Shown: in pieces, positions 4,709 through 62,107 of the stretch
Numbering within the stretch: the stretch's first letter is position 1
Layout of the letters: each line of letters opens with the position of its first letter
NCBI GenBank assembly: GCA_965237955.1
Contig: OZ250169.1
Span: 7,840,001 to 7,904,000 of the forward strand
Origin: Candidatus Marinacidobacterales bacterium
Lineage (GTDB): Bacteria > Acidobacteriota > Vicinamibacteria > Marinacidobacterales > SMYC01
Length of the DNA: 64,000 nucleotides
Direction: 5' to 3'
Notes under the pieces: generated by a model
Database searches by the model: none
What the model was told of the DNA's origin: nothing
Seen by the model: only the letters and a program-made list of their open reading frames with translations
Position numbers and translations under genes: made by a program

Positions 4709-5085
4709 TCGTACGAGATAGTAGTTATTTGGTACTTTCGAGTGAACGAACGATTTCGGTCACTCCCCGATGACCTCCGCCCACGCGGGCGGTGCCATTG
4801 CTGTCAAGTTTTCCACGGCCTGACGGCCACCGCGTCCTGTGCCAAAGCTCGGCCCAGCCGGTATCGACGAAAGAACTGCGCCTCTCAAAATCAGGCGAAA
4901 CTCTAGCACACGAACAGGTTACGCGGCGGCTACCAACACTTGACTGCGGAAGCACCTTCGAGCGGCCTTCACGAGCTTCTCCAGGATGCCATCGCTGTCC
5001 TCGTATTGGAGGGTCAGGCGATGCCGCTCTACGTCTTCACCCGTCTTGGGATCCGAATAGGCGTCGGAGAGTTGCGCCTCAAGGA

Positions 5086-6170
5086 GGCGTTGTTGCACCG
5101 CTCTGGCTGAGAGCGAAATCCGCCTATGGTGGTGGCCGAGGTATGTTCGAGCATGAAGTATCCCAAGGGCTGCCAGTACAAGCACGCGAAGCAGAAGAAG
5201 TACCACGTTCGCAACTGGCCGGAATACAACGAAGGGCTGCGCCGCCGGGGCGATTTGACGGTCTGGTTTGACGAGGAGGCAATCGCGAACTGGAAGGCCG
5301 ACAAGACCGGTAAGCCTGGCGGTCAACGGGTCTATTCAGACATGGCGATTGAAACGGGCCTGGTTGTCCGGATGGTGTACAAGCTCGCCTACCGACAAAC
5401 CGAAGGCTTCTTGCACTCGATCGCCTCGCTGCTCGGGCTCGGTATCGAGATCCCGGACTACTCGACGTTGTGTCGGCGCTCGAGGTTGCTCCGCAAGAAG
5501 CTGCGGATTCCGAAAGCCGCGAGCACTCAACCCATCCACCTGATGATCGATAGCACGGGCTTGAGGATTCATGTTGGAACCGCCCGCAAACCGCCAAAGC
5601 TGCGTGCATGGCGCAAGTTGCACATCGCCGTTGATCGCGAGACAGGGAACATTGTTGCGTCCGAACTGACGGCGTCACGCGCTCGCGACGCAACCCGAGT
5701 CCCCGCTTTGCTAACACAGATTCAAGCACCTCTAGTGTCGGTGGCGGCGGACAGTGCATACGACAAGGAAGCGGTCTACGAAGCCATCGAAGCGCACAGT
5801 CCTGGACGAAGGACGCGCGTGGTGATTCCGCCGCAACGAAACGCGACGCTCAGTCAGAATTCGAACACCGCCATGCAGGAGCGCGATCGCCATATTCGTG
5901 CAATCGAAAGACACGGCCGACGTGAATGGTACAAGCTCTCAGGCTACACCAAGCGAAGCATGGCGGAGAACGCGGTCTATCGTTACAAGGCGATCATCGG
6001 GCCGGAGATGCGGGCTCGAACGTTGGCGAGGCAACGAGTTGAACACCGAATTGGGTGCGAGATACTCAACAAGATGGCTGCGCTCGGGATGCCCGATACG
6101 TACTGCGCCGGGTGACTCTGCAGCCGGCACAGGGAGGTCAGCGATTTGCTCCGGGCCGTGCAACAACGCC
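5086..6170 (+). mobile_element. IS5 family, IS903 group, copy 1 (transposase 5126-6115)
   Basis: TIR GGCGTTGTTGCAC; 329-aa DDE protein with NW..YN..L..RG, IDSTG, WRKLH, SGY..RS..E motifs. Confidence 0.93.
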
Positions 6171-6369
6171 CAGGCATAGTGCTGGCAGACCGGAGACTAA
6201 TCAAGTTCGGGGCGCGCGGATAAATAAACAGAAGGTGCAGCGCTGATGGCTTTCCACGCAGCCGCGTCTACCAGCGTACTGCGCATAACAGGATGACCCT
6301 AGCATCATCACAAGGGCTCGACGGATCGGCCACAACGCTCGCCGCCCTGAAGATCCAAGTCGAAGAACT

Positions 6370-7860
6370 CTAATCCACTCCGCGGGCCGCGATAGTGAGG
6401 ATCTGCTGGATGAACCGCGGGTTGACTCCGACATTCTCGCAGAGCCAAACGAGGCAATCCATTTCCTGCTGGTCGATCGAGCCGTCCGCATAGGAAATCA
6501 CAACAATGTCCCGAATCAGCTGAAGCCTCTGGAGACCGGTCATCATGTAGGCAATGTCCTTGGAAAGCTCAACTACCTGTTCGCGAACCACATCGACGGG
6601 CTGGTTGAAGACTTCACGAATCTCGTCCAGTGAGACGGCAAGCCCCACCAAACTCTCGAGTGCCTCGACCTCGGAACGCTCGAAGACTCCGTTGGCGGCC
6701 GCCACGAGAAACTTTGCCTTCAGCAGATACGAGCGCCCCTTGTCGCCGACGTCGCCGGTGTCGGTCAGGTATGTCGGCTCCATGATGCTCATGAGCTCGG
6801 TTACCTGATCGGCGACTTCGTCGGCGGTGAGGGTTCCTCCGTTGGAGCCGATCAGCTCGCGGTAGGGCTGGCCCTTGGTGAAGACTTCAAGCGCTTTCAG
6901 CCGCATGGGATTGAAGGGATGCGGGCTGAACCAGTCCTGTGGATCGGACTCCTGCGAGGCTACCTCGCTTCGAAGATCATCGAGCTGCGCCAGGTACTCC
7001 TTCACGCTGAACTGGAAAACGGACGACGTGATGCCCGAAGACAGCTTGAAGAACGTATTGGCCGCGACGTCGAAGCTGCGGCAGCAAACCATGCCTACTC
7101 GATCTGCGGTAATTTCCGAGTTCCGCATCCACGCGTACAATTTCATCGCATGGAGAGGGGCCAACCGGCCGCCGTTGTTCTTAAGAATGTAGTCGACGGG
7201 GAAACGAGTGTGCTCAAAAAGATAGTGGCCGAGCTCGTGCCCTATGACGAAAGTCAGCTCCTCTCCCGAGAACTTCTCGAGAAGCGAGCTCGTCAGCATC
7301 AGAAGCACCTTATCCTTGGTAGGCGGGTAGCAGGCCGCATTGAAGTGGCTGTCCTGATTGACGTAGACCTCGATATCGGAGGTCAGCTCAAGCGTACGGG
7401 CGCAGTGATCGACCACTTGATAGACCGTTGGCATCATGCCGCGAGAAATCTTGAGCGCCTTGGTGAGAAGCTCTTTGCGCGCGTTGTGAGGTTTCAGCTC
7501 GGCCAATAGACAATTGACCGTCGAGGAAAACTCCGCATCTGCAAGAAGCTCGGCGAGCGCGCGTCGGTCGCCGCGGAAAACGAGCCGATGCATGTCGATA
7601 CCGGCAAGCGTCTGGTCGTAGAGCGTCTCGTCGCGAGTCTGCTCGTCCTCCGACATGCGCTCGAGATGCGTTCGATAGCTCGTCTGAATCGATTCGACGA
7701 TCTGGCTCAGACGGGCTCTCAAACGGCCCATCTCGTCTTGGCCACGCGCAGTGGAAGCACGCTGCTCGAACTGGCGGGTCACGCGGGCGATCTTGTCTCG
7801 GAGCTCTTCGCCGAGAGCGACGAGATTGGTCGCTCGCCATTCGATAGCGGTATCAGTCAT
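6370..7860 (-). CDS. M48-family Zn peptidase with C-terminal TerB-like domain
   Basis: FNAAC, IGHELGH, EITADR; AAANG..E and ADGSID..E repeats. Confidence 0.8.
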   Translation of the reverse strand: MTDTAIEWRATNLVALGEELRDKIARVTRQFEQRASTARGQDEMGRLRARLSQIVESIQTSYRTHLERMSEDEQTRDETLYDQTLAGIDMHRLVFRGDRRALAELLADAEFSSTVNCLLAELKPHNARKELLTKALKISRGMMPTVYQVVDHCARTLELTSDIEVYVNQDSHFNAACYPPTKDKVLLMLTSSLLEKFSGEELTFVIGHELGHYLFEHTRFPVDYILKNNGGRLAPLHAMKLYAWMRNSEITADRVGMVCCRSFDVAANTFFKLSSGITSSVFQFSVKEYLAQLDDLRSEVASQESDPQDWFSPHPFNPMRLKALEVFTKGQPYRELIGSNGGTLTADEVADQVTELMSIMEPTYLTDTGDVGDKGRSYLLKAKFLVAAANGVFERSEVEALESLVGLAVSLDEIREVFNQPVDVVREQVVELSKDIAYMMTGLQRLQLIRDIVVISYADGSIDQQEMDCLVWLCENVGVNPRFIQQILTIAARGVD

Positions 7861-8101
7861 GGCTACAGCCGCGGCCTGTATCTAGAGATCTCCCCACGCA
7901 GAAGCAAAGCTTGGAATAGCGCTTCTTAATTTGGGCCGAAGACCTTCCGCTACGACCGTTTGGGGGTGGCGGTCGCAAAGTCCTCGATCCTTTTCCATGT
8001 TTGAAACCCCGCAAGCGCGGAGAATCGCCGTCTCCCCTTGTAACCTGTAGCAGGCAACTGGTCCATACCCGCAGCCTGCGCGTGGGACGGTCAACCAAGG
8101 T

Positions 8102-9124: not shown

Positions 9125-9395
9125 ACGACGCCCCTTTCAATGCGGTTCGAACACGCTCAGACCGGTACAATGGATGCTGGGCCGGATGGATGAGCCGATG
9201 TAGAGAAGAATTCGGCGTCGGGCATGTTTCCACCCAGCGCGGCGATGCGCGCCGCGCACGCGAGCCCCGTCCTGTGCCAAAACTCAACAGAATAGAACCG
9301 CCGCCGTCGATTTCTTTTGACGCCGACTCATTTAGTTCATCATCATCAATTGCTCCTCCTGCGTCAGTCCTTTCATCAAAAGCAAGTCATCCATT

Positions 9396-9848: not shown

Positions 9849-10222
9849 GCAAACATTCTCTGTGTAGAGGAAGCTCTCACCTATTCGCCTGGGCTTCGGG
9901 AGCTACCCGAGGCCTGATGCAAGGCTGTTATATTCAGTGAGCAACCCGACTCGATGCGGGGCTACACAGAAAACGTTTGCGGGAGGATTGTCTTAGGCCG
10001 GCTCTAGAAAGTCAACTGGCTTATTCGTGCGTGGTTGGTCTTTGACGACCTCGTCCTGTGCCAAAACTAGGCCCTCTTGAAATAGACCACAAATCAGCAG
10101 CTTAGACGCCCTTGGAATCCGCCGACCCTTGGGCTGCGTGGCGAGCTACAGGCAGTGAACTTCGCACCCGGAAGTCCTTTATTGGACTGGACTTTATCGA
10201 GCACAAGAGCGAACGTTCGGTG

Positions 10223-10660
10223 ATGCCGCAGGATACAGGGGTTGGCCGGAACGTCGTTTTGGACGGTTTGGACTTCGCCAGCTTGCGGCGGGTCTGGGAG
10301 CAGGCCTTCGGGGCTGCTCCCCCACGCTCGCTCTCTCGCGTTTTCATGTGCCGCGTTCTTGCGTACGAACGCCAGTGCCGGACCCATGGCGGGCATTCGG
10401 CCGCAACCCGGCGCGCTCTGGCTGCCATGGCGAACGGGACGCCAGGCAACGGCGCCGGCGCTCCCGCAGGGTCCGTTTCTGCCGGCACCCATCTCGTCCG
10501 CGAGTGGAATGGCCGGACCTACCAGGTCGAGGTACTCGACAGCGGCTATCGGTTCGATGGCAAAACCTATCCGTCCCTCACTACCATCGCAAAGCGAATC
10601 ACCGGAACCCACTGGTCAGGACCACGCTTTTTCGGTCTGACGCCCAAGCGCAAGGCCTAA
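10223..10660 (+). CDS. DUF2924-family protein
   Basis: GTHLVREWNG...Y.SL..IA..ITGTHWSGPRFFGL; precedes a serine recombinase. Confidence 0.88.
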   Translation: MPQDTGVGRNVVLDGLDFASLRRVWEQAFGAAPPRSLSRVFMCRVLAYERQCRTHGGHSAATRRALAAMANGTPGNGAGAPAGSVSAGTHLVREWNGRTYQVEVLDSGYRFDGKTYPSLTTIAKRITGTHWSGPRFFGLTPKRKA

Positions 10661-10661
10661 C

Positions 10662-11380
10662 ATGAAGAAAATCCGTTGCGCCATCTATACGCGAAAGAGT
10701 GCGGAAGAGGGTCTCGAACAGGAGTTCAACTCCCTCGATGCGCAGCGAGAAGCCTGCGCCGCGTATGTCGCGAGCCAGAAAGCGGAGGGCTGGGTGCTGC
10801 TGCCAACCGTCTACGAGGACGCGGGGCTCTCGGGAGGAACCCTGGAGCGCCCGGGCCTACAGCGCTTGCTCGACGACATCGATGCCGGTCTCGTCGACCA
10901 GATTGTGGTCTACAAGGTCGACCGGCTGACCCGTTCCCTCTCCGACTTTGCAAAGCTCGTCGAGCGGCTCGAGGCGGCCGGCGCGGTTTTCGTCTCGGTG
11001 ACTCAGTCCTTCAACACCGCGACCAGCATGGGACGACTGACGCTGCATATGCTGCTGTCCTTCGCACAATTCGAACGCGAGGTCACGGCCGAGCGGATCC
11101 GCGATAAGGTCGCTGCCTCCAAGCGCAAGGGACTATGGATGGGCGGCCGCGTACCGCTCGGCTATGAGAAGGACATTCGCGAGGATGCACTCCGCATCCT
11201 CGCACCGTTCCGCTTGCGTCGACGCGGCGTCGAGACCAAGCTCGTTCTGGGCAACCCCACGAAATCCGTCGACCGCACACTCCTGCGCAATATCAGAAAC
11301 GCCCTCTCCTGGCTCGACCGAATCAAAGCAGGCAAAACCTATGAGCAGATTGCCAACGAAGACGCCATCCCAACGGACCG
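10662..11380 (+). pseudogene. Large serine recombinase, internally deleted and 3'-truncated
   Basis: CAIYTRKS, YKVDRLTRS; diverges from the 56506 copy after GYEKD and jumps to a C-terminal-type segment; cut by repeat end at 11381. Confidence 0.88.
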
Positions 11381-11543
11381 CGTCCTGTGCCAAAACTCGG
11401 CCCATTTGAAATAGACCATAAATCAGTAGCTTAGTGTCTGTGTTTCCGACTGGGCAGCGAGTTGCGATCTTCTTTATTGCGGACGACAGCCGGTCTGATC
11501 TCCACCTTCGGCCAGCCCGGCGCGGATCGCCTATAATCCGGCC

Positions 11544-12035
11544 ATGCGCTCATTGCTGAAGATTGCCCTTGGCATTGCCGCACTAGTCGTGGCGTTCGGG
11601 GCCGGGTGGCTCGTCGCGATCACCGGCACCGGTCAAGCCATCCCCCTGGAGTCACTCTCGGAACTCGAGCGGGGGTTCGCCGAGCGGATGCAGAACGTGG
11701 TGCTTACCGGCCACTACACGCTCAAAGGCCGTGAGCGTCGCGACGACAAGCCGGAACGCTACGAGATCACCAGAGTGGCAAAGGTCGGCGAGCACCGGTG
11801 GCGGTTCGACGTTCACATGACCTACGGGAGTGTCGACATGACGCTGCCGGTCGTCGTGCCCATCCGGTGGGCGGGTGATACCCCCATAGTCACCATTACG
11901 GACATGGTCATCCCAGGGCTCGACGGTACCTTCACGGCGCGGGTCATGTTTTACGCGGAACGGTACGCTGGCAGCTGGCAGCACGGCGAGTGCGGTGGGC
12001 TCATGTACGGCACGATCGCGCCGCTGAGCGACTAG
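11544..12035 (+). CDS. Hypothetical protein with N-terminal TM/signal segment
   Basis: 163-aa ORF; TATAAT just upstream. Confidence 0.7.
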   Translation: MRSLLKIALGIAALVVAFGAGWLVAITGTGQAIPLESLSELERGFAERMQNVVLTGHYTLKGRERRDDKPERYEITRVAKVGEHRWRFDVHMTYGSVDMTLPVVVPIRWAGDTPIVTITDMVIPGLDGTFTARVMFYAERYAGSWQHGECGGLMYGTIAPLSD

Positions 12036-12050
12036 TCGGAGACGCCACAC

Positions 12051-13229
12051 GTGGGGAAACCAGTTACGGGGATAAATCCCGCCGTCCTGAAATGGGCGAG
12101 AGAACGTGCGGGATACACGATCCAAGAGATCGCCGCCAGATTCGGCTACGACTCCGGTATTGTGGTGGCTTGGGAAGCCGGTGACGGTGCGCCCACGTAT
12201 GCTCAACTGGAAAAGTTAGCCTACCAACTCTACAAACGGCCGCTCGCCGTCTTTTTTTTCCCCCAGCCACCAAGCGAACCCGACCTGACCTCCGAATTTC
12301 GTACGCTACCGGAATCCGAGATCGAGGAATTGGAGCCCGACGTCTTCTATGCGCTTCGCGAAGCAGCCGCGATGCAGCTGTCGCTCATCGAACTGAACGA
12401 AGGGATAAATCCAGCTGAGGAGAAGATTTTCGCAGACGTAAAGGCGCATGCTACGGCAGCGCGCCCTACGGCTAACGCCATTCGCGCATACCTGGGAGTT
12501 GAGATTTCCGACCAAACGAATTGGAAATCTGACGAGGACGCCTTAAAGGAGTGGCGCTCGCTCGTCCAGGAACACGGGGTTTTCGTGTTCAAACGTTCCT
12601 TCACGACCGACGACATCTCTGGCTTCTCGCTCATGCACGACGAGTTCCCGCTTATCTATCTTAACAACGGTTCGTCAACGCGGCGCCAGATCTTCACGCT
12701 GTTTCATGAACTGGGACATGTTCTTCTCCAATTTAGCGGGGTCACGAGAATGGACGATCGGTACATAGAAATTCTTAGGGGCCTACCGCGCCGTGTGGAA
12801 GTGTTCTGCAATCAATTCGCTAGCGAGTTCTTGGTTCCGTCACAAGGCCTCCAGCAATGGCTTCGGCCGGAACGCGTAGACGATGAGGACATTGCGTCGC
12901 TTGCCGATCGCTATTGGGTAAGTCGGGAGGTCGTACTCCGCAAATTTCTTGACAGAGGCCTCGTATCAGCTGATTTTTATCGCCAGAAAGCGGACGAGTG
13001 GAACGAGGAGTACAGAGCCCAGAAGAAGGCACGTAAGGCACAAAGAAAGGGCAGCGGGAACTACTACGCGACTCAGGCAACCTACCTTGGTGACCGATAC
13101 TTGAATCTCGTGTTTCGCAAGTACCACCAAGGCCGGTTTAATCGAGACCAACTCGCCGACTACTTGAACGTTAAGGTGCCGAGCGTGAGTGGCCTAGAGC
13201 ATTTCATGCTCGGCAAGGCGACCAAGTAA
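12051..13229 (+). CDS. XRE HTH + ImmA/IrrE metallopeptidase (antitoxin-like)
   Basis: INPAVLKWARE HTH; FTLFHELGH; EVFCNQFA. Confidence 0.9.
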   Translation: MGKPVTGINPAVLKWARERAGYTIQEIAARFGYDSGIVVAWEAGDGAPTYAQLEKLAYQLYKRPLAVFFFPQPPSEPDLTSEFRTLPESEIEELEPDVFYALREAAAMQLSLIELNEGINPAEEKIFADVKAHATAARPTANAIRAYLGVEISDQTNWKSDEDALKEWRSLVQEHGVFVFKRSFTTDDISGFSLMHDEFPLIYLNNGSSTRRQIFTLFHELGHVLLQFSGVTRMDDRYIEILRGLPRRVEVFCNQFASEFLVPSQGLQQWLRPERVDDEDIASLADRYWVSREVVLRKFLDRGLVSADFYRQKADEWNEEYRAQKKARKAQRKGSGNYYATQATYLGDRYLNLVFRKYHQGRFNRDQLADYLNVKVPSVSGLEHFMLGKATK

Positions 13230-13699
13230 CCGTCTACATATTCGATAGTAGCAGTTTTCGGGTGCTAAACCACTACTTTCCAGAGAGGTTCCCCACGTTT
13301 TGGACAAAGTTCGACGAGGCGACGTCCGGGGGAACAATTGTCTCGGTTCGCGAAGTAAGAAGGGAACTGGATCGACAGGTCGTGAGCCAGCATGTGAAAG
13401 ATTGGATCAAGGCAAACAAGTCGATTTTCCACACACCCAACGGCGCGGAAACGGATTTCGTCAAGGATATATTCGCAGTCCCTCACTTCCAATATCTCGT
13501 CAAGAAAGAGCAGACGTTGCGCGGTAGGCCGGTAGCGGATCCATTTGTCATCGCTGCAGCCAAGGTCAGAAACGGTGTGGCAGTGACAGAGGAAGCAATG
13601 AAGAAGAACGCGGCGAAGATCCCAAATGTTTGTGCCCATTTCGGAATCGAGTGTACTGACGCCGAAGGATTCATGGAGCAGCAGGGTTGGTCGTTCTGA
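13226..13699 (+). CDS. DUF4411 PIN-domain protein (start codon anomalous)
   Basis: YIFDSS, ADPFVIAAA, VTEE, KIPNVC motifs; the frame extends upstream of the called GTG at 13262. Confidence 0.85.
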   Translation, partial: VTVYIFDSSSFRVLNHYFPERFPTFWTKFDEATSGGTIVSVREVRRELDRQVVSQHVKDWIKANKSIFHTPNGAETDFVKDIFAVPHFQYLVKKEQTLRGRPVADPFVIAAAKVRNGVAVTEEAMKKNAAKIPNVCAHFGIECTDAEGFMEQQGWSF

Positions 13700-13977
13700 C
13701 GGACGGCCAGCTGCGCTACGCGCGACTGGCTGAGGATTTATGTTTCCAATGCTCGAGTGTCGTTGAGTGCCAGCAGGCCCTCTGCCCGCAGACGCGCTAT
13801 CCACCCCGTCCTGTGCCAAAACTCGGCCCTTTTGAAATAGACCACAAATCAGCAACTTAGACGCCCTTGGAATCCGCCGACCCTTGGGCTGCGTGGCGAG
13901 CTACGGCCAGTGAACTTCGCACCCGGAAGTCCTTTATTAGACTGGACTTTATCGAGCACAAGAGCGAACGTTCGGGG

Positions 13978-14360
13978 ATGCCGCCAGGATACAGGGGTTG
14001 GCCGGAACGTCGTTTTGGACGGTTTGGACTTCGCCAGCTTACGGCGGGTCTGGGAGCAGACCTTTGGGGCTGCTCCTCCAAGCTCGCTCTCGCGTGTTTT
14101 CCTGCGCCGCGTTCTCTTGCACGAACGCCAGTGCCGGACCCATGGCGGGCTTTCGGCCGCAACCCGGCGCGCTCTGGCTGCCATGGCGAACGAGACACCA
14201 AGCTCCGGCGCTCCCGCAGGGTCCGTTTCTGCCGGCACCCATCTCGTCCGCGAGTGGAATGGCCGGACCTACCAGGTCGAGGTAGTCGACAACGGCTATC
14301 GGTTCGATGGCAAAACCTATCCGTCCCTCACTACCATCGCAAAGCGAATCACCGGCACCC
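13978..14360 (+). pseudogene. DUF2924 copy, frameshifted and truncated
   Basis: Near-identical to the 56073 copy; extra C after the start; ends at repeat tip 14361. Confidence 0.85.
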
Positions 14361-14912
14361 CGTCCTGTGCCAAAACTCGGCTGTGCCTTCTATTTATTCA
14401 TCCGCGCGCCCCGACCTTGATCGGTCTCCGGTCTGCCGGGACGATGCCTACATGATTTCGTCGTTTGTTCGCGCTCGGCCCTTGGCACGGCCGCAAACAC
14501 AGACACTAAGCTACTGATTTATGCTCTATTTCAAAAGGGCCGAGTTTTGGCACAGGACGGGGTAGCCGAAGCACGGCTCTTGACCCCGTCCTGTGCCAAA
14601 ACTCGGCCCTTTTGAAATAGGCCATAAATCAGCAACTTAGTGTCTGTGTTTGCGACCGGGCCAAGGGCCGTGGGCTTTACAATCGTCTTGGGCGGGCGGG
14701 TCGTCACCATGCAGATGACCACCTAGTCGAGAGCGAATATCGAAGCGTGTTCCTGAAGCGGTTTCCACGCTACGCCGGTCGAGCCCGCCGAGGGGCTACC
14801 GTCGCCGGCGACCATCTACGCGGCACGGCAGTAGTAGTTGAGAATGCCCCCAAGTCGCTCTCGCGACACGATGGGGCCAGCGTTATTCGCGCTTGCCGGC
14901 AGAGGTGTGATG

Positions 14913-16224
<1,312 letters not shown>

Positions 16225-16712
16225 GTGGAGTTCAAGATGAGCTTGCTGGCGGGAGTCCAGGGAGACTTGCTCGCCATTGGAGAACTCGTACGTAAGGGAC
16301 GTACGCTGGACGCCTGCCGGCTCGAGGTCGTCGAGGGCAGCGACCGTGTGGTGGCGATCGGGCTTGCCACTTACGCCCTCCAGGCCGGTTAGCTATCTGC
16401 ACCCGTTTGTTGCAGCCCCAGCCGTGGATCGCGTCGTGTCCAAAAACACAAACGATAGCGGCCTGTTGGTCACGCTGGAGCCAGCCAGCGATGGCGACGA
16501 CCAACAAGGTTCAGGGCTGGCTCTGCCTCCTCATGACCGAGGATTCTAGCTTCCATTGGCCAACCAAGCCTCAGACGTCTCTGATCCGAAACGTCCCGGC
16601 GCGCCAGTCTTGAGTTCGTTTGTGTTTTTGGACAGAAGGCGCATGAGTATTTTGATCTCACGAGGACCGCGGCCCTTCAGACAAAGTAGTCCCTCAAGAG
16701 CGGAGGCGACCC

Positions 16713-16990: not shown

Positions 16991-17032
16991 CGGGCGCGGT
17001 ACAATGTACGCATGAGTATTTCGACAAAAGTA

Positions 17033-18117
17033 GGCGTTGTTGCACCGCTCTGGCTGAGAGCGAAATCCGCCTATGGTGGTGGCCGAGGTATGTTCGAGCA
17101 TGAAGTATCCCAAGCGCTGCCAGTACAAGCACGCGAAGCAGAAGAAGTACCACGTTCGCAACTGGGCGGAATACAACGAAGGGCTGCGCCGCCGGGGCGA
17201 TTTGACAGTCTGGTTTGACGAGGAGGCAATCGCGAACTGGAAGGCCGACAAGACCGGTAAGCCTGGCGGTCAACGGGTCTATTCAGACATGGCGATTGAA
17301 ACGGGCCTGGTTGTCCGGATGGTGTACAAGCTCGCCTACCGACAAACCGAAGGCTTCTTGCACTCGATCGCCTCGCTTCTCGGGCTCGGTATCGAGATCC
17401 CGGACTACTCGACGTTGTGTCGGCGCTCGAGGTTGCTCCGCAAGAAGCTGCGGATTCCGAAAGCCGCGAGCACTCAACCCATCCACCTGATGATCGATAA
17501 CACGGGCTTGAGGATTCATGTTGGAAACGCTCGCAAACCGCCAAAGCAGCGCGCATGGCGCAAGTTGCACATCGCCGTTGATCGCGAGACAGGGAACATT
17601 GTTGCGTCCGAACTGACGGCGTCACGAGCTCGCGACGCAACCCGAGTCCCCGCTTTGCTAACACAGATTCAAGCACCTCTAGTGTCGGTGGCGGCGGACA
17701 GTGCATACGACAAGGAAGCGGCCTACGAAGCCATCGAAGCGCACAGTCCTGGACGAAGGACGCGCGTGGTGATTCCGCCGCAACGAAACGCGACGCTCAG
17801 TCAGAATTCGAACACCGCCATGCAGGAGCGCGATCGCCATATTCGTGCAATCGAAAGACACGGCCGACGTGAATGGTACAAGCTCTCAGGCTACACCAAG
17901 CGAAGCATGGTGGAGAACGCGGTCTATCGTTACAAGGCGATCATCGGGCCGGAGATGCGGGCTCGAACGTTGGCGAGGCAACGAGTTGAACACCGAATTG
18001 GGTGCGAGATACTCAACAAGATGGCTGCGCTCGGGATGCCCGATACGTACTGCGCCGGGTGACTCTGCAACCGGCACAGGGAGGTCAGCGATTTGCTCCG
18101 GGCCGTGCAACAACGCC
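17033..18117 (+). mobile_element. IS903-group copy 2 (transposase 17073-18062)
   Basis: Same TIRs, near-identical to copy 1. Confidence 0.93.
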
Positions 18118-18151
18118 TCTTCGACATCAGATTCGGTGAATCGGGAAGGGC

Positions 18152-39773: not shown

Positions 39774-39778
39774 GGTGG

Positions 39779-40291: not shown

Positions 40292-40298
40292 CGCTCGA

Positions 40299-44073: not shown

Positions 44074-44082
44074 AGACCACAA

Positions 44083-46537: not shown

Positions 46538-47295
46538 GAGGGAAGCAAGTGAACGGCGGCGTAGAAGCCTTTCACGTTGCGCCACACAACGATCTGTCCG
46601 AGACAAGGCGTCCGAACGCGAGATGTGTAGTCCAGCGACCCAGCATTTACTACTTGTGCGATGGACGTGCACCCTCGGGCCAGTGCAATACCGTTGATTG
46701 ACTGAGGATCGTTGTACACATGGATGCTCGTGTCGCTCGCTTTGGTCCATTCCGTTTCGAATTTCAGCACTTCAGAACCGATGACATAGCGACCGTTATG
46801 GCTACTGTAGTCAAACACAACCTCGCCGGCCGGGGAAGTCATTCTCGGGGGAGGCATTTCGGAAGCCTTACCATTGAAACGCTCGATTCCGAGCTTTTCC
46901 GCTATCGTCGCCGCAAGTTGTGAAGGCGTGTGTTCTTCGGCGCGTAAGAAGATAACGTCTTCCTGCAATCCAGGGACCGAAGTGTCATCGAAGCGCACCG
47001 GAAGAACATATTCTCTCTGTGCTCCGAGCGCGCGGCTCATGGCGGACCGTCTCTCATGACGCGTCCAAGCCTTGTCGACATATGCTTGGGAAATGAACAT
47101 CACGACATAGGCGGCCTGTTGCTCGAATGCTTGATGAAAGGCCTCCGCGCCGTTCTGGCCCCATAACGACACCTTCTCGAAGCCGTCGTAGAACACCGCG
47201 ATAGATCGCTCGTGAAGACACCGCGCTACCTCTTCAACGTAGCTCCGTTGTTCACCGGCAAAGGATAACGCCACTTGATACTGCATGTTCCTCAT
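46538..47295 (-). CDS. TIR-domain protein, C-terminus clipped by IS
   Basis: YQVALSFAGEQR, VFYD, FIS..Y....WT..E, LPVRFD. Confidence 0.85.
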
Positions 47296-49140: not shown

Positions 49141-49860
49141 ATCACAAGATGGAATGCGAAAAGGACTCTCGCTAGGTGTGCTGATTATCGGGTCGCTTTA
49201 CTGGGACCCCGTCCTGTGCCAAAACTCGGCCCTTTTGAAATAGGCCATAAATCAGCAACTTAGTGTCTGTGTTTGCGACCGGGCCAAGGGACGTGGGCTT
49301 TACAATCGTCTTGGGCGGGCGGGTCGTCACCATGCAGATGACCTCCTAGTCGAGAGCGAATATCGAAGCGTGTTCCTGAAGCTGTTTCCACGCTACGCCG
49401 GTCGATCCCGCCGAGGGGCTACCGTCGCCGGCGACCATCTACGCGGCACGGCAGTAGTAGTTGAGAATGCCCCCAAGTCGCTCTCGCGACACGATGGGGC
49501 CAGCGTCATTCGCGCTTGCCGGCAGAGGTGTGAGGAGCTCGTTGCCGAGACCTTGGTGGTTCCGTTCTGTGTGATAGTGCACTACGTATTCGGTTTTATT
49601 TCACCAACACTTAATGGCGGAAGCACCGTCTATTTCAAAAGAGCCGAGTTTCGGCACAGGACACGGTCAAGTACAAGTACAAGGGCGGCAAAGTTCTGAC
49701 CGAAAAGTTATTTATTCGGAGATAGTTATAGAGATTCGGCCTCCCACGACGAAGGGCGCCGGAAATGATTTAGTTGAAACTGGCTCCGCTCCCGGCGAGC
49801 TGGTCTTGAGTTCGTTTGTGTTTTTGGACACGACGCGCATGAGTATTTTGACCTCACGCC

Positions 49861-49890
49861 TTGACATGCTAGACATTTGTCTGGTACGGT
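49861..49890 (+). promoter_or_regulatory. lexA promoter with candidate operator
   Basis: TTGACA-18-TACGGT with palindrome AGACA-TT-TGTCT at 49871-49882. Confidence 0.6.
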
Positions 49891-49895
49891 TAAAC

Positions 49896-50528
49896 GTGCC
49901 CAAGACACCTCCAGGTGAGACACGCGAACGGGTCTACGAGTTCGTCCGGGAGCGCCTGTGGAGCGGCCGACCGCCGACGATCCGGGAAGTGCAACACGCC
50001 TTTCACTTCCGCGCCGTCGAAACGGCACGGGCTCACCTCGAAGCCCTCGTCCAACAAGGTCTCCTGGTGAAACGAAACGGAGAGGCACGCGGGTATGCCC
50101 TCCCCGAGCTCGAGAGCAACCATTTGCCGAGGCTCGTTCCTATTCTGGGGCACGTCCAAGCGGGCGCTCTCAGCACCGCGGTCGAAGATCTCGAAGGCTA
50201 CGTTCCGGTCGAAGCCACCGGCTCCTCGCAAGAGCTCTTCGCTCTTCGGGTCCAGGGCGAGAGTATGACTGGGGCGGGCATCTACCCGAACGATCTCGTC
50301 ATCGTAAAAAGGCAAGCCACGGCGCACTCTGGAGAAATCATCGTTGCACTCGTCGAGGACGAGGCCACGATCAAGCGCCTCCGGATCCGAAACGGCCACA
50401 TCGAGCTCCATCCGGAGAATCCAGATTTCGACATCATCGTCCCGACCCGCTTTCAAAGCTCGATTCTGGGCCGGGTCATCGAGATTCGCAGGTTTTTGGA
50501 CAAAGCCTCGTCACCCATTCGCGATTGA
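49896..50528 (+). CDS. lexA: LexA repressor
   Basis: PPTIREV, LG.V.AG cleavage site, V.GESM, ATIKR; GTG start at 49896. Confidence 0.93.
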   Translation: MPKTPPGETRERVYEFVRERLWSGRPPTIREVQHAFHFRAVETARAHLEALVQQGLLVKRNGEARGYALPELESNHLPRLVPILGHVQAGALSTAVEDLEGYVPVEATGSSQELFALRVQGESMTGAGIYPNDLVIVKRQATAHSGEIIVALVEDEATIKRLRIRNGHIELHPENPDFDIIVPTRFQSSILGRVIEIRRFLDKASSPIRD

Positions 50529-50540
50529 AGTATTACCTTC

Positions 50541-51212
50541 ATGTTCATCTCGCGCGCTTTCGCCAAGGGACTTCTCTCCTCGTCTCCCTCTCTCGCCGAG
50601 AGCGTCAAGCAAGATTGGGGGCTCGCGCAGATGGCGGGCCGCCTCGTTGAGATTTCCGGAGAGCGTGCGTCGGCGAATTTGACGGTCGCGATAGGTCTCG
50701 TGCTCGAAGCCCAACAACGTGGTGAGCATGCGTCCTGGGTGACATTACGGCACAGTACGTTTTTTCCGCCCGATGTGGCCGCCTGCGGCGTTTCATTGAG
50801 GCATTTGGTCACCGTCCGCGTGGAGACGCTTCGTGACGCCACTCGAGCCGTCGTCGAGCTGACGCGCTCGGGCGGCTTCGACCTCGTCGTGCTCGACCGG
50901 GGTCCCGAAGCGCTCCTCGTGGGCAGAAGCTTTTCTCGGCTTTCAAAAAAGAAGCAGTATCGCGAGCGATTCTCGACTCCGCTTCTCACTAAGCTCGCCG
51001 GTTTAGCTCGAAAACATCGAACCGCCGTCGTCGTTCTGACGGAGAAAAACGAGCGGGCGAGCTCATTGAGTTCGCTCATTTCGCTGCGCGCCGAAACCAA
51101 ACGCGACAAGGACGAGCCTTGTCGACTGGAGATTCACTTGTTGAAAGACAAAAGGCGTGGGCCAGGACGACGTCATCACGAGGTATGCCATGCACCGGAT
51201 GGCCTGCGTTGA
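50541..51212 (+). CDS. imuA: ImuA/RecA-like protein
   Basis: GRLVEISG, FFPPD, RSGGFDLVVLD; cassette position. Confidence 0.82.
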   Translation: MFISRAFAKGLLSSSPSLAESVKQDWGLAQMAGRLVEISGERASANLTVAIGLVLEAQQRGEHASWVTLRHSTFFPPDVAACGVSLRHLVTVRVETLRDATRAVVELTRSGGFDLVVLDRGPEALLVGRSFSRLSKKKQYRERFSTPLLTKLAGLARKHRTAVVVLTEKNERASSLSSLISLRAETKRDKDEPCRLEIHLLKDKRRGPGRRHHEVCHAPDGLR

Positions 51213-52686
51213 TATCCCGGCTTTCCCGTTACAGCTCCTGTTCAAGGAGCATCCCGATTGGCGCGAATTTCCCGCCGCCGTCGTCGCCGAAGAAAAGCCT
51301 CAAGCCTTCATCCTTTGGGTCAACGAGAAAGCGAGACATTTCGGGATCCGTCCGGGCCATCGTTACGCCTCCGGGCTCGCACTTTCACGAGAGCTGCGCG
51401 CAGGGGCCATCGGCGACGAGTTTGTTCGAAGAGAAGTTGCAGCGCTCACGGAAAGACTTCGCCAATTCACGCCCGAAGTCGAGCCCGCAGACGAAAAGTG
51501 GCACTCTCCCGGCCTTTTCTGGCTGAACGCTTCGGGTCTCGAGCGGCTGTTCTCCTCGCTTTCCACGTGGGGGCGCAACATCCGTGCCGCGCTCGACGCC
51601 ATGGAGTTTTTTTCTTCGGTAAGCGTGGGCTATACCCGCTTCGGCAGCTATGCCGTGGCTCGTGCTCATCGAGGCCTCACAGTCCTCAAAAGCCGCGACG
51701 AAGAAGAAAGCGCGGCACGCCGCGTGCCGCTCTCACGTCTCGACATTCCACCGGACGCCCAGGAATCCTTTCTCAAGCTCGGGGTGCGCACCGTCGCCGA
51801 TCTGCTCCACTTGCCCGCCAAAGGGCTTTCGAAACGATTCGGTCCCGAAGTCCATGACCTGCATCGTCTCGCGCGCGGAGATCTTTTTGGTCCGCTCGCA
51901 CCCAAGCCTCCGATCGAGCCTCTCGAAGAGCGGATGGAGCTTCCGGGGCCGGAGATCGACAGCGAGCGCCTGTTGTTCTTCATCAAGCGGCTCGTCGATG
52001 CCTTGCTCGAAAAACTCGACGCCAAGAGCCTCGCGTTGACCAGGCTCACCCTGAAGCTCGTGCTCGACGATCGAAGCACTTGTCAAGAAGAGCTTCGCCC
52101 CGACACGCCCACGCTCGATGGCCCCAAACTCTTGGGACTCATCCGGCTGCGGCTCGAGAGCGTGCAGCTTCCTGCTGGAGCGGTCGAGCTCGCCATCGGT
52201 GCCAAAGCATCCCGCAAGAAGAACGAACAACTGTCCTTAGTCACCGATAACCCGAAACGCGATCCTGAGAAAAGGGGGTTGGCCTTAGCGCGACTGCGCG
52301 CCGAGCTCGGAGACCACGCGGTCGTCTGCGCCCAGCTCACCGATGGGCACCTTCCCCGGGCTCGGTTTCAATGGACGCCTCTTACGAGCGCGGTCACCGC
52401 GGAAGTTCCAGCGACCAAGAGTCGTCGAACGCTGATTCGGCGCATCTACGACGCTCCCACGGCGCTTCCTCCGCGTTCCCGTCACGAGCCGGACGGCTGG
52501 ATGCTGCGCGGGCTCGAGTTCGGTCCGGTCCGCGATTTTCTGGGCCCCTACATTCTTTCAGGAGGCTGGTGGAAGCGTACCGTTCAGCGCGAGTACTACT
52601 TCGTGACCATGCAGCAAGGCGACATCTATTGGGTTTTCTACGATCGGTTCCGCCGCTGGTGGTTTCTGGAAGGACACGTGGAATAA
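51190..52686 (+). CDS. imuB: ImuB (inactive Y-family polymerase-like)
   Basis: [16 protein letters not shown]....GWW...REYY; start MHRMAC after RBS. Confidence 0.88.
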
Positions 52687-52711
52687 GCCGCCTGGCACGA
52701 TCCTCTCTCTC

Positions 52712-55756
<3,045 letters not shown>

Positions 55757-56072
55757 TAATGTTGCGCCTTTACATAAGCTTGATCGGCGAGAACCACGTG
55801 TCCCTTCCCGTCCTGTGCCAAAACTCGGCCCTTTTGAAATAGACCACAAATCAGCAGCTTAGACGCCCTTGGAATCCGCGCAGAATCGAGGGCATTTCGC
55901 GCCGCAGGGCTGACTTACGACCCCTGGGCTGCGGGTGGCGAGCGACAGGCCCACCGGGGGTGCGCACGGCTGGCTCAAATCGGCTGCCGGGCGAGCTACG
56001 GGCAGCGGACTGCGCACCCGGAAGTCCCTCATTAGACTGGACTTTATCGAGCACAAGAGCGAACGTTCGGGG

Positions 56073-56504
56073 ATGCCGCAGGATACAGGGGTTGGCCGGA
56101 ACGTCGTTTTGGACGGTTTGGACTTCGCCAGCTTGCGGCGGGTCTGGGAGCAAACCTTTGGGGCTGCTCCCCCACGCTCGCTCTCGCGTGTTTTCCTGCG
56201 CCGCGTTCTTGCGTACGAACGCCAGTGCCGGACCCATGGCGGGCTTTCGGCTACAACCCGGCGCGCTCTGGCTGCCATGGCGAACGAGACACCAAGCTCC
56301 GGCGCTCTCGCAGGGTCCGTTTCTCCCGGCACCCATCTCGTCCGCGAGTGGAATGGCCGGACCTACCAGGTCGAGGTAATCGACAACGGCTATCGGTTCG
56401 ATGGCAAAACCTATCCGTCCCTCACTACCATCGCAAAGCGAATCACCGGCACCCACTGGTCTGGACCACGCTTTTTCGGTCTGACGCCCAAGCGCAAGGC
56501 CTAA
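56073..56504 (+). CDS. DUF2924-family protein, copy 3
   Basis: Near-identical to the 10223 copy. Confidence 0.88.
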   Translation: MPQDTGVGRNVVLDGLDFASLRRVWEQTFGAAPPRSLSRVFLRRVLAYERQCRTHGGLSATTRRALAAMANETPSSGALAGSVSPGTHLVREWNGRTYQVEVIDNGYRFDGKTYPSLTTIAKRITGTHWSGPRFFGLTPKRKA

Positions 56505-56505
56505 C

Positions 56506-57551
56506 ATGAAGAAGATCCGCTGTGCCATCTATACGCGAAAGAGTGCGGAAGAGGGTCTCGAACAGGAGTTCAACTCCCTCGATGCGCAGCGAGAAGCCTG
56601 CGCCGCGTATGTCGCGAGCCACAAGGCGGAGGGCTGGGTGCTGCTGCCGACTGTCTACGAGGACGCGGGGCTCTCGGGAGGAACCCTGGAGCGCCCGGGC
56701 CTCCAGCGCTTGCTCGCCGACATCGACGCAGGTCTCGTCGAGCAGATCGTGGTCTACAAGGTCGACCGGCTGACCCGTTCCCTCTCCGACTTTGCAAAGC
56801 TCGTCGAGCGGCTCGAGGCGGCCGGCGCGGTTTTCGTCTCGGTGACTCAGTCCTTCAACACCGCGACCAGCATGGGACGACTGACGCTGCATATGCTGCT
56901 GTCCTTCGCACAATTCGAACGCGAGGTCACGGCCGAGCGGATCCGCGATAAGGTCGCTGCCTCCAAGCGCAAGGGACTATGGATGGGCGGCCGCGTACCG
57001 CTCGGCTATGAGAAGGACGAGCGCACGCTGCGCATCAACGAGGCTGAGGCCGAAACGGTCCGGACGCTCTATGCGCTGTACCGAAAGCACGAAACGCTCC
57101 GGCAGGTGAAGGCCGAGGCGGACCGTCTGAGACTGCGCACCAAGCAACGCTTCACCGCTGATGGAACCCGAACGGGCGGGCTGCCGTTCCGTCGCGGACA
57201 CCTCCACTGCCTGCTGACCAATCCTCTCTACGCCGGCCGCATCCGGCACCAGAGGCGTGTCTACGAGGGCCAGCATCCATCGATCATTGCTCCGGAGCTC
57301 TGGGACGCGGTCCAAACGCAGCTGCAGGCAGGGGCTGCCAAACCAAGGAGACGCACGACGAAGGGCCGTGCAGCCCGTTCCCCACTGGCAGGCAAGCTCT
57401 TCGACGAGACCGCGGACCGGCTGACGCCGAGCCACACCAAAAAGAAAAACGGGCAACGGCTCCGCTACTACGTCTCCCGGCGCCTCATCCAGCACAGTGG
57501 CCAAAAGGACCTCTCCGGCTGGCGACTGCCCGCACCCATGCTGGAACAGAC
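56506..57551 (+). pseudogene. Large serine recombinase truncated by IS3
   Basis: YTRKS, NPLYAG, GQH..II, LAGKLFD, RYYVS. Confidence 0.9.
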
Positions 57552-58863
<1,312 letters not shown>

Positions 58864-59237
58864 GTACCAACGCAGAAGCGTAGCGGGTGTGGCAACGGAC
58901 GCAATCTGGGCCAGCGCCTCGCGGCCCAAAGCCTGGGCCTTGACCGCGAGCCTGCGCCGGTCGTCGTCCGAGAGCCTGAGACGCTTGCCCCGAAGCCCGG
59001 CTCGGAGCACACGGTTCTCCTCTTGCAGGTAGTCGATCACATCCTGCTGCTGGCGGTTGACCCAGCCAGCTAGAACGAGCAATAGGAATTGCACGTGGTA
59101 CGTCATCATGGATCTGAAGATAACACCCTCGGGCCAGACGATTGTAAAGCCTACGGCCCTTGGCCCCGGCGCAAACACAGACACTAAGCTGCTGATTTAT
59201 GGCCTATTGCAAAAGGGCCGAGTTTTGGCACAGGACG
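58864..59237 (-). mobile_element. Left-end fragment of the 'A' IS
   Basis: Matches ~35853-36226. Confidence 0.9.
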
Positions 59238-59314
59238 CGGTCAAACCTCTGCGAGTCACCCCGGCAGAGCCGGGGGTTTACCTGTGATAATTAAAGATCC
59301 AGGGGACTAGTGGC

Positions 59315-60778
59315 ATGAGCACATCCAAAGAAGAGTTCACGTCTCGATGGGGGATCCTGCTGACCTCGATCGGCATGGCGGTCGGCACCGGGAACATCTG
59401 GCGTTTTCCACGAGTTGCCGCCGCGAATGGAGGAGGATCGTTTCTCATCCCCTGGGTGATCTTCCTGTTCGCGTGGGCGATCCCGCTGCTTCTCGTCGAG
59501 TTCGCTCTCGGCAAGACCACCCGCCGCGGCCCGGCGGGCGCCGTTGGAACGTTGATAGGAGAACGCTACAACTGGTTGGGCGTTTTCGTGGGACTGGTGA
59601 CGTGCTTCATCATGTTCTATTACTCCGTCGTCACCGGGTGGTGTCTGAAGTACTTTACCGTTTCCTTGGGCACGGTGTTCTCCGCCGACAATGCCGAGAG
59701 TTACTGGACGCGATTCACTAGTGATCCCATCCAACCGGTCATCTTCCACGCCATAGCACTCGCTATAGGATGCTCCATCATTTATAGAGGCGTCGTCCGT
59801 GGTATCGAGCGGACCAACCGCATCCTCATCCCGGCGCTTTTCGTGCTCCTCATCATCGCGGCCATCCGTGCGGTCACTCTTCCCGGGGCCGTGAAAGGCC
59901 TGGCCTATCTGTTCACGCCGAACTGGGAAGACCTCGGAAACTACCAAGTCTGGCTGGCAGCGCTAACCCAATCCGCGTGGAGCACCGGGGCGGGCTGGGG
60001 CCTGGTGACGACCTATGGCGTGTACTTCCGCAAGAAAGACACGTTCACGCTGACGACGCTCACGACCGCGTTCGGCAACAGTTCGGCTTCGCTTCTCGCC
60101 GGCATCGCGGTGATGTGTACCGTCTTCGCCCTTCTTCCCGAAGACCAGGCCTCGGCCGCTCTCGCTGCCGGCAACGAAGGCCTGACGTTCATCTGGATGC
60201 CGCAGCTTTTCTCGTCGATGCCCGGAGGGCGAATCTTTCTCCCCATTTTCTTCCTCGCGCTGAGCTTCGCGGCGATTTCTTCGCTCATCGCCATGCTCGA
60301 AATGGCGTCCCGCATGATGATGGACCTGGGTTTTTCGCGCGCCCGCGCCGTGCCCACGGTCGGCGTGGTGTCGTTCGTGCTCGGCCTTCCCTCGGCGTTT
60401 TTCATGGGCTTTTTCAAGAATCAGGATTGGGTCTGGGGCATCGGCCTCATGTTCTCCGGTTTCTTCATCGCGGTGACCGTCATCAAGTATGGAGCGGCGA
60501 AATTCCGGGAGGAGCTCATCAACACCGAAGATGAGAAGCATCCGATCGGTAGCTGGTTCGTGTGGGCCATCTCGATCGTCGTGCCGCTCGAGTTTCTTGC
60601 CATGCTGGCATGGTGGTTCTACCAATCGGCGACGCAATTCGATCCCGATGGCTGGTGGAAGCTCCGGAGTGAATCGAGCGTTGGGACCGCCGTCATCCAA
60701 ATTTCGGTGCTCGTCGTCGTGGTTGTCATCACCAACACCTACTGGGTCCACCGCCTGAAAAAGAGTAGCGGATCGTGA
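59315..60778 (+). CDS. Sodium-dependent transporter (NSS/SNF family)
   Basis: GMAVGTGNIWRFP, GGGSFL, FYYSVV.GW. Confidence 0.95.
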   Translation: MSTSKEEFTSRWGILLTSIGMAVGTGNIWRFPRVAAANGGGSFLIPWVIFLFAWAIPLLLVEFALGKTTRRGPAGAVGTLIGERYNWLGVFVGLVTCFIMFYYSVVTGWCLKYFTVSLGTVFSADNAESYWTRFTSDPIQPVIFHAIALAIGCSIIYRGVVRGIERTNRILIPALFVLLIIAAIRAVTLPGAVKGLAYLFTPNWEDLGNYQVWLAALTQSAWSTGAGWGLVTTYGVYFRKKDTFTLTTLTTAFGNSSASLLAGIAVMCTVFALLPEDQASAALAAGNEGLTFIWMPQLFSSMPGGRIFLPIFFLALSFAAISSLIAMLEMASRMMMDLGFSRARAVPTVGVVSFVLGLPSAFFMGFFKNQDWVWGIGLMFSGFFIAVTVIKYGAAKFREELINTEDEKHPIGSWFVWAISIVVPLEFLAMLAWWFYQSATQFDPDGWWKLRSESSVGTAVIQISVLVVVVVITNTYWVHRLKKSSGS

Positions 60779-60960
60779 GCTTGGAGCTCGCGGAGAAGGA
60801 CAAAGCACTCCTCGCGGGCGAACTCGGTCGTGCTGCGAAGATGGCGATGTCCATCCTCGTGCGCATGGCCGACGTGTACCGCGCGGAGCGCATGCTCGAC
60901 ATCACCGGCGCTCACGTCGACAGCACCATCTACGTTGGCGACGCTGGGCTCGAGTTCAGA
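60775..60960 (+). pseudogene. Aconitase X (DUF521) N-terminal fragment
   Basis: G.AAKMAM.IL, ITGAHVDSTIY.G.AGLEF, then divergence. Confidence 0.75.
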
Positions 60961-61182
60961 TCAGATCCTCTTCGGTCTGGCTTTCATTGGGCGTCTTCCT
61001 CGTCGGAAAAAGGTTGAAAACGTCCCGGACGGAGGCTTCGATGGCGTCCTGTGCCAAAACTCGGCCCTTTTGAAATAGGCCATAAATCAGCAACTTAGTG
61101 TCTGTGTTTGCGACCGTGCCAAGGGCCGTGGGCTTTACAATCGTCTTGGGGCGTAGCCTCGTCTTAGCCCCAAAGTTCATGA

Positions 61183-61907
61183 TTACACTGCCTCAGCTTT
61201 CCAACGAACCGAGCCCAGTTCGATTGGCAACGCCTTGATCAGATCGTTAAGCCCATCAAGGTCATTGGTCACCTTTTTGTGAACGTAGGGAGTCAAAAGC
61301 CCAGGCACTGGTGCCACGTCGGCGTAGCGGAGAGTGATAATCGCGAACTTCTTGCCCTTCTTGCGCTTCTGAAGGACCGCATAGTCAACCTCTGTAGCCA
61401 AGTATTTTTCGTCGGTGAAACGTTCGGTGATGAAAAATATCGCGGCGCAAGACTCTTCGAATCCTTGCAAAAGCTCCCGCTCTAAGTTCGCACCAGCGGA
61501 CATTTCCGGCTCATCAAGCCAAGGATTGAAGCCGAGGGTTTTCAGAGCGTGGTAGTAGCGGTAGACGAGTGGCTTGTCGATGGACTTGTGGCTTAGAAAA
61601 ATTCGAACTTGGCGAGGGCGCGGAATACGACTGAGGGGAACGGCCTGCACAGCGCGCGCCTCCGGCGTCGCCAAATCGGCGGCGTCGCCAAGTCGCTGGG
61701 ACAGAACTTCTGCAAACGGGCGGAGCACGAGCGTCTGGAAAAACTCAACTGCCTCATCACGCTCGCGCTTCCCGTAGACAAGGCCCAATTCGAAGATCCG
61801 GATATCGTTTTCCCTAGCAGATCTAATAACCCGATAGCGCAGCACGAGCTCCTCATCTTGATCTGAAGGGAACGAAATTTTCGTCCTGCGATCTGTCGCA
61901 CCGACCC
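61183..61907 (-). CDS. TIR-domain protein, 5'-truncated
   Basis: RIFLSHKS.DK, GFNPWLDE, EVDYA; begins at tip 61908. Confidence 0.82.
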
Positions 61908-62107
61908 CGTCCTGTGCCAAAACTCGGCTCTTTTGAAATAGGCTACAAATCAGCAACTTAGTGTCTGTGTTTGCGACATCCCAAAGGGCCGTAGGCCGGC
62001 TGTGCCTTCTATTTATTCATCCGGGCGCCCCAAACTTGATTAGTCTCCGGTCTGCCGGCACCATGCCTGCTTGATTTCGTCGTTTGTTCGCGCTCTCATC
62101 TCCGCCT

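Follow-up and report, generated by a model that had tools for sequence, protein, structure and literature searches.

Background

To our knowledge, what defines DDE transposases is the integration of paired ends together with a target duplication of fixed length, and single-end strand transfer is known just as a step or a side reaction. Insertion sequences (ISs) of the IS481 family move through a circular copy-out intermediate. Their target duplications are given, in part of PMC10045372, as 2-15 bp, mostly 6, and their termini, in part of 10.1101/2022.12.17.520857, as 5'-TGT. Here we analyse a 64,000-nucleotide (nt) stretch of a Candidatus Marinacidobacterales genome (contig OZ250169.1, positions 7,840,001 to 7,904,000), referred to as the window, in which the ends of an IS481-like element, type A, recur. 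The element and its derivatives have a sharp junction, a polar target and no duplications of fixed length, and they lie between flanks that are unrelated on the two sides. On balance we think that the transposase usually joins one end at a time to the polar target AYCC|NGT. The outcome would be deletions, duplications of variable length and the capture of genes rather than clean insertions.

The element resembles IS481 in having a single open reading frame (ORF) for a DD35E enzyme with a helix-turn-helix (HTH) and an integrase core, a length of about 1.4 kb, and NF033577 (IS481) as the top NCBIfam match of its transposase. However, this match scores 99.3 bits against a cut-off of 224, the element starts with CGTNNTGT (family ends CGTNNTGT[GC]C) and not with TGT, and it has no duplication. 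The junction falls before CGT, and TGT occupies positions 6-8 of the end. IS1202 elements are characterized by a transposase of 400-500 amino acids (aa) and duplications of 5-6, 16-17 or 27-28 bp, whereas the present enzyme has 356 aa and no such duplications were found. Variable capture of flanking DNA is a likeness to IS91/IS1294 and to ISEcp1. IS91 uses an HUH enzyme and a rolling circle, and ISEcp1 a surrogate second end with a 5-bp duplication; in place of an IS91-type HUH (Y2) transposase we find DDE motifs and a predicted DDE fold. Short two-ended derivatives and passenger units moved in trans recall MITEs (miniature inverted-repeat transposable elements), TIME and TIME-COMP, although the units here have hybrid ends of two sister ISs and no duplication.

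The islands of IS26/IS6 elements are likewise mosaic regions, made up of gene fragments and IS ends, with no duplications at the flanks and with cargo between copies. IS26 itself is described, in part of PMC7885326, as having 14-bp repeats and making an 8-bp duplication on cointegrate formation. In contrast, our element matches no IS6 model, has repeats of about 126 bp, a polar target and no partner half. An 8-bp duplication split over cointegrate or inversion junctions is not apparent, as there is no overlap peak. IS26/IS6 elements also form clusters of directly oriented copies and use conservative end-to-end exchange; on this point the present genome shows a weak local strand bias and the shared flanks with different inner sequences described below. 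The element works like an IS481/IS3-type DDE element and yields an IS26-like landscape. One-ended DDE strand transfer resolved by host replication is known from the figure-eight step of IS30 and IS911, as set out in part of PMC9333248. In figure-eight ISs the single end attacks beside its partner end and later integration is two-ended, whereas in the present case the sites open to single-end attack would be many across the genome, and products with two ends were not seen. Part of PMC11708052 reports new IS481/IS5 copies bridging large duplications or deletions without target duplication, which it calls rare and ascribes to existing breaks, and four resident IS481 copies with 4-bp duplications. 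Compared with the cases in that part of the paper, the missing duplication is the rule here and the junction has a sequence preference, which indicates cutting by an enzyme. No published description of this IS family was found in a search that ISfinder and most subscription journals lay outside.

The complete element and the inventory of tips

The complete element of the window and its gene are as follows.

34799 to 36226, minus strand: complete type A IS, 1428 bp, with imperfect inverted repeats of about 126 bp and ends 5'-CGTCCTGTG, without target duplication
35028 to 36098, minus strand: IS481-like DDE transposase, 356 aa, with HTH_32/HTH_21 and rve_3 domains and D178, D244 and E279 as DD35E

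An initial annotation, made from the letters alone, had recognized this as the only complete element of the window, which is correct, and had named the encoded enzyme as the agent of rearrangement, which is likely. The genome holds 22 full type A copies, 18 of them with an intact frame. D178, D244 and E279 are invariant in 17 sequences. The predicted structure resembles retroviral integrases and IstA, in a modest model (predicted local distance difference test score 62) whose N-terminal third is unreliable. A sequence search of PDB with the transposase gave no significant match, and PF22548, a candidate accession for the IS excision enhancer, gave none either. More than 8000 relatives of the transposase were found, and plasmid matches are just 30-41% identical.

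A motif search placed 28 type A tips in the window, 21 on the plus and 7 on the minus strand, all where the initial annotation had put them and on the same strands (its approximate 49662 is exactly 49663). The four nt outside the tip are mostly ACCN (15 of 28) or WTCC (5 of 28), as had been noted. Eleven ends of a sister family (type B) had been overlooked. Genome-wide, that is on the contig of 8.13 Mb, there are 506 type A tips (262 plus, 244 minus). Their density is clumped: 482 of them lie in 38 of 163 bins of 50 kb, and 110 bins have none. Windows of 64 kb elsewhere hold as many as 35. A strand bias is absent overall. The reversed 18-mer used as control has 0 matches across 41 genomes, and the motif is therefore not a matter of chance.

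Most tips are ends of MITEs, of non-autonomous units or of cut IS copies. Only 18-23 nt of end are left at tips 4833, 9268 and 14361; throughout the genome, 331 tips have at most 100 nt of end, and these were sorted into 111 inner classes. Transposase-less units with two ends recur on differing flanks, as MITEs and non-autonomous cargo units do: a 317-bp unit in 33 copies with 31 flank pairs, a 129-bp unit in 19 with 18, a 392-bp unit in 6 with 6 and a 3520-bp unit in 2 with 2. MITE sizes tied to tips in the genome range over 134-733 bp.

Junction and target sequence

Flanks were compared with empty copies of the same sequence. At 226 sites the agreement is 91-99% up to position -1 and 40% at +1. 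The target consensus from 192 type A sites is AYCC|NGT (A at -4, 0.66; C at -2, 0.89; C at -1, 0.71; G at +2, 0.68; T at +3, 0.64), and the same target was found again in 98 sites from relatives. It is close to the filled junction, AYCC|CGT. The target is polar: A or T occupies position -2 in 8 of 984 type A tips, but position +1 in 47 of 111 targets of one set and in 48 of 98 of the other (95 of 209). The best mirror centre lies at -1, and no mirror centre fits. CG as a duplicated dinucleotide was considered and rejected, since empty sites go on with CG in 61 of 220 cases. Ends that stand back to back have spacers of 12-112 bp and no fixed length. Of 35 shared flanks, 18 carry different inner sequences, which target hot spots would also explain.

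Search for target duplications and partner halves

The test for paired ends used 1401 family ends in the genome and in fetched loci, of which 733 have an empty reference copy. Among these 733, no facing ends that rebuild a target site were found within 20 kb; the sole pair within this distance is a same-strand pair with a 12-bp overlap, and a blunt pair 25 kb apart is outward-facing with mixed end types. The same pipeline found ends in pairs for 18 of 56 in an IS3 element, 12 of 18 in a TGTATT-ended IS and 4 of 91 in an IS5-type IS. Overlap lengths between the family ends show no peak at any distance. Of 173 recurrent two-ended copies, 41, 16 and 4 have repeats of 1, 2 and 3 bp, where 44, 13 and 3 would be expected, and in the range of 1-10 bp no longer repeat occurs. 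None of the 65 copies with both flanks mapped has them contiguous within 49 bp, the smallest same-strand gap being 50 bp. Long duplications of the IS1202 type, suggested by spacers of 24-27 bp, were ruled out by a test for duplications of 5-45 bp, which gave 3 matches of 6-7 bp in 2299 pairs.

We also examined 111 matches in distant genomes and metagenomes, of which 50 have both ends and 21 have none, the rest being one-ended or duplicates. The 50 relatives with both ends (45-87% protein identity) share the flank logo of type A and show repeats of 1 bp in 13 cases (14.2 expected), of 2 bp in 6 (7.6 expected), and of 4 bp or more in none. A duplication of 1-2 bp, suggested by 7 of 12 low-copy relatives, was given up because the excess is gone in the 50.

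The suggestion of one-ended or adjacent-deletion transposition is supported: the junctions look one-ended or deletion-type, and the missing halves of cut genes do not abut a partner tip.

Two other ISs of the genome may be described here. The IS5-type element (1085 bp, GGCGTTGTTGCAC ends; window 5084-6171, 17031-18121 and about 62100-63198) has no 8-9 bp duplication in 50 full copies, four split 9-bp pairs and a roughly symmetric logo, from which it looks replicative or deletion-prone. The other IS, which has CTGTCC/TGTGCA as its ends and is present at G000:C1:3640927-3642277 and in 15 further copies, occurs in islands only, with paired target halves at 0 of 22 ends.

An 88-bp duplication

A type B-ended composite of 2843 bp in core DNA (L096:2010-5028) is flanked by a direct duplication of 88 bp, both borders of which match the flank consensus. 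The composite consists of two sister-IS remnants and a membrane protein gene and stands at the end of a SurA-like gene, which is kept whole because the duplication includes its 3' end. The 88-bp segment is single in genome G002, and likewise in a divergent contig from run X1, in which 2935 bases are skipped; this run contains pieces identical to the genome and is possibly not independent. Two separate attacks 88 bp apart would leave such a duplication.

Proposed mechanism

Under the single-end reading, a tip would attack with its 3' end a single strand at a site similar to the junction of the element itself (AYCC|CGT). The branch would be resolved by replication or repair in the host, leaving an adjacent deletion, or a duplication, or a circle that carries flanking cargo, and a copy at a new place would be a bridge between two separately chosen sites. 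With repeated rounds, flanks would be replaced, neighbouring genes and older copies cut, and the DNA between ends moved. Dispensable DNA would be where most of these events are tolerated, and we propose this as the reason for the islands.

Several observations weigh against single-end joining. The target's outer bases (A..T, Y..G) show a rough symmetry about -1, of the kind that a 1-bp stagger would give. The 88-bp case is a single example and has type B ends, the other three long duplications in 3429 pairs sit in multi-copy DNA, and few duplications lie close by (for 3 of 104 low-copy flanks, on the inner side and no more than 10 kb away). The 50 relatives include many metagenome contigs, which are possibly mis-joined across the repeated IS. 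Synteny of isolated copies with relatives revealed no lost stretch, deletion at arrival is not demonstrated against an empty site, and an apparent frame join at an isolated copy at 4.92 Mb had to be dropped, as the G009 orthologue gave no support. No circle or branched intermediate was seen in the assembled contigs. Moreover, islands erode the duplications of other ISs: of the IS3 copies, 1 of 8 in islands and 10 of 17 outside them still have one, and the IS5-type element has one in none of 50 full copies, while the TGTATT-ended IS keeps it in 5 of 6 island copies. Since islands strip other ISs, missing duplications alone cannot separate single-end chemistry from replicative transposition with deletion, and it is the polar target that carries the argument.

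If single-end joining is right, this is a family that uses as a rule what is otherwise a step, a natural engine of deletion, duplication and capture, and it would explain how such genomes assemble large mosaic islands. It is also relevant to the unsettled question why duplications are never found with some IS copies, and it is directly testable, as the element is small, has 18 intact copies and a defined target. Annotation tools that rely on TGT ends or on duplications will miss the borders of the element. More tentatively, and with somewhat less than even confidence, we suggest that a widespread clade of single-gene DDE ISs with CGTNNTGT ends may have abandoned concerted integration, with single-end transfer into a junction-mimicking polar site as the normal reaction, every copy a deleting or duplicating bridge, and hundreds of ends building shuffled islands on the scale of megabases.

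Alternative explanations

The main rival is replicative transposition with two ends, of the IS26-like copy-in kind, which would produce cointegrates, inversions and adjacent deletions; later deletion or recombination among hundreds of ends would lose the target halves. For IS26, part of PMC7885326 states that simple insertions with duplication are not directly formed; the IS5-type element shows such a pattern in the same genome (0 of 50 duplications, four pairs at 9 bp, a roughly symmetric logo), and the 18 of 35 shared flanks with different inner sequences would fit swapping at ends. Nevertheless, we consider this explanation the less likely one, since attack by two ends should give a strand-symmetric target and an overlap peak at one length, neither of which is seen, and low-copy relatives are equally without duplications. 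Ordinary copy-out/paste-in with a stagger of 0-2 bp, scrambled afterwards by homologous recombination and other ISs, is in our estimate improbable. It would agree with the 1-bp centre of the best symmetric fit and with the 1-2 bp repeat in 7 of the 12 low-copy relatives examined first, but the excess is absent in the 50 relatives, 0 of 65 copies rebuild a site even with MITEs of 129-395 bp included, and the TGTATT-ended IS retains duplications in the same islands.

The unrelated flanks might also be assembly chimeras at a repeat, as the public runs consist of short contigs of which none spans the stretch. We give this next to no credence: control ISs of 1.3-1.6 kb keep their correct flanks in the same assembly, short MITEs are without correct flanks too, mis-joining cannot produce a target logo, and the pattern recurs in other assemblies. 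It is hardly more probable that the ends serve an ordered, integron-like cassette system with polarity by design. What speaks for it is that 16 of the 18 unpaired window tips point in the same direction, with overdispersion of unpaired tips at p=0.0003, and that three segments recur with family ends at both borders. However, over the whole genome the strands are balanced, at 262:244, tips cut into one another as well as into genes, the borders of cargo vary, both IrrE pairs and the dnaE2 cassette of the window are single copy, and no tyrosine integrase was found among the 62 window ORFs scanned.

Polarity and the integron comparison

The initial annotation had described a polarised array. A local bias does exist: the 21:7 split of the window has a nominal p=0.013, the bias over 24 windows is overdispersed (p=0.018; most extreme window p=0.054), and the strands of unpaired tips show overdispersion against a null model in which pair removal is taken into account, the unpaired tips of the window being plus in 16 of 18 cases. 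Another 64-kb window has a split of 2:16. This bias is weakly supported as a local feature and is not a genome-wide design; it is gone once sister ends are added (p=0.69). Nested deletions in the same direction would give a local bias of this kind. An all-plus array at first suggested for relative G021 was rejected, as 160 kb there contain 44 plus and 27 minus tips.

The integron-like outcome that had been envisaged is not supported. Instead of whole cassettes in the same orientation with fixed borders there are cut genes, variable extents and both strands; there is no single insertion site of the integron type; and windows elsewhere reach 35 tips. A Pfam scan of the 62 window ORFs contained no IntI tyrosine integrase, and attC was not searched for.

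Sister family and relatives

The sister IS has about 55% protein identity to type A and adds 221 type B ends to the genome; hybrid units with one end of each type occur. The exact 18-mer end is found in 10 of 40 relatives, on both strands and with up to 447 per genome, and the relatives that have it belong to five other genera and two families. The transposase is 95-99% identical among records named Ca. Marinacidobacterales (L013-L083). This identity, together with the exact end in the relatives, suggests a recent horizontal spread of the IS.

Features of the window

The tips and the segments that they bound are as follows (in addition to the complete IS given above).

4833 to 4855, plus strand: tip, 23 nt of end; inner class with 9 occurrences on 8 different flanks
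9268 to 9285, plus strand: tip with 18 nt of end; inner sequence unique
10052 to 11380, plus strand: left part of a non-autonomous unit of 3.5 kb that has a 54-nt end, DUF2924 and a large serine recombinase; cut by tip 11381
11381 to 13806, plus strand: tip (75 nt), then HTH-IrrE and DUF4411 pair; single copy in the genome
13807 to 14360, plus strand: second copy of the DUF2924 unit, cut within DUF2924 by tip 14361
14361 to 14559, unstranded: two-ended mini-element, 199 bp, back to back with tip 14587 over a 27-bp spacer
14587 to 14910, plus strand: first 324 bp of the IS, then an IS3 element
16432 to 16639, unstranded: sister-family MITE, 208 bp, with type B ends, CGTCGTGTCCAAAAA
20366 to 20406, plus strand: tip (41 nt) cutting a TPR frame, then type B tips 20473 and 20748
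27132 to 27653, unstranded: end of the DUF2924 unit, cut by type B tip 27259; converging type A tip 27653
29539 to 30357, plus strand: two nested IS ends of 478 and 341 bp; 29539 cuts a sister transposase and 30017 a type A transposase
31096 to 31218, unstranded: hybrid MITE, 123 bp, one end being type A and the other type B
32210 to 34798, plus strand: remnant of a 3520-bp two-ended cargo unit, with nested IS110, phosphatase and ADP-ribosylglycohydrolase
36366 to 36448, plus strand: tip (83 nt); inner class found 3 times
39771 to 40154, minus strand: last 384 bp of the IS
40292 to 41662, minus strand: reductive dehalogenase segment between outward-facing family ends; 99.9% copy with the same borders at genome 3359996-3361366
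42226 to 42617, unstranded: MITE, 392 bp, 6 copies with 6 flank pairs; type B tip 42740
44609 to 44663, plus strand: tip (55 nt) after the second IrrE-DUF4411 pair
49210 to 49663, unstranded: 386-bp IS end and short converging tip 49663; type B tip 49835; lexA-imuABC(dnaE2) cassette follows
55809 to 59237, unstranded: DUF2924-recombinase unit interrupted by IS3 and terminated by the IS's last 374 bp
59238 to 61044, plus strand: sodium symporter segment bordered by outward-facing tips; copies in another island (99.7%) and at 4.26 Mb (96%)
61045 to 61150, plus strand: first 106 bp of the IS
61908 to 61980, plus strand: tip at the start of an open TIR frame, the frame being open to the tip

The 3.5-kb DUF2924-serine recombinase unit is the most amplified unit, with 80 tips in the genome (window 10052-11380, 13807-14360 and 55809-59237, and locus L279), and its recombinase may act on these units. 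The 3520-bp cargo unit is whole at two other genome loci; in the window its own tip, 32210, cuts a carbamoyltransferase gene, of which just PF16861 profile positions 126-170 are left, and the remnant is cut by tip 34799. Cutting by tips, as had been reported, was confirmed for the serine recombinase (tip 11381; 44 uninterrupted copies), DUF2924 (14361; 43 copies), ADP-ribosylglycohydrolase (34799; 8 copies), the carbamoyltransferase and the family transposases at 29539, 30017 and 31096. It was not confirmed for two others: the TIR domain at tip 61908 is whole, a search for an empty copy of that frame having found none, and the glycosidase has no Pfam support. TIR genes lie at window 46504-47295 and 61183-61907.

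The two pairs of an IrrE-type peptidase and DUF4411 (window 12051-13699 and 42862-44586) are unrelated to each other and have RmrA/CapP-like PADLOC matches; they are possible toxin-antitoxin or defence modules. A complete lexA-imuA-imuB-dnaE2 cassette at window 49614-55756 is flanked by family ends, and a second dnaE2 (84% aa) is found at 5.95 Mb. The reductive dehalogenase gene at window 40299-41495 scores above the cut-off of TIGR02486 and has copies in two islands. The terminase large subunit gene at window 37748-39187 has a 99.95% copy at 0.90 Mb, and a groEL copy lies at window 2182-3837, in a segment that occurs about four more times in the genome.

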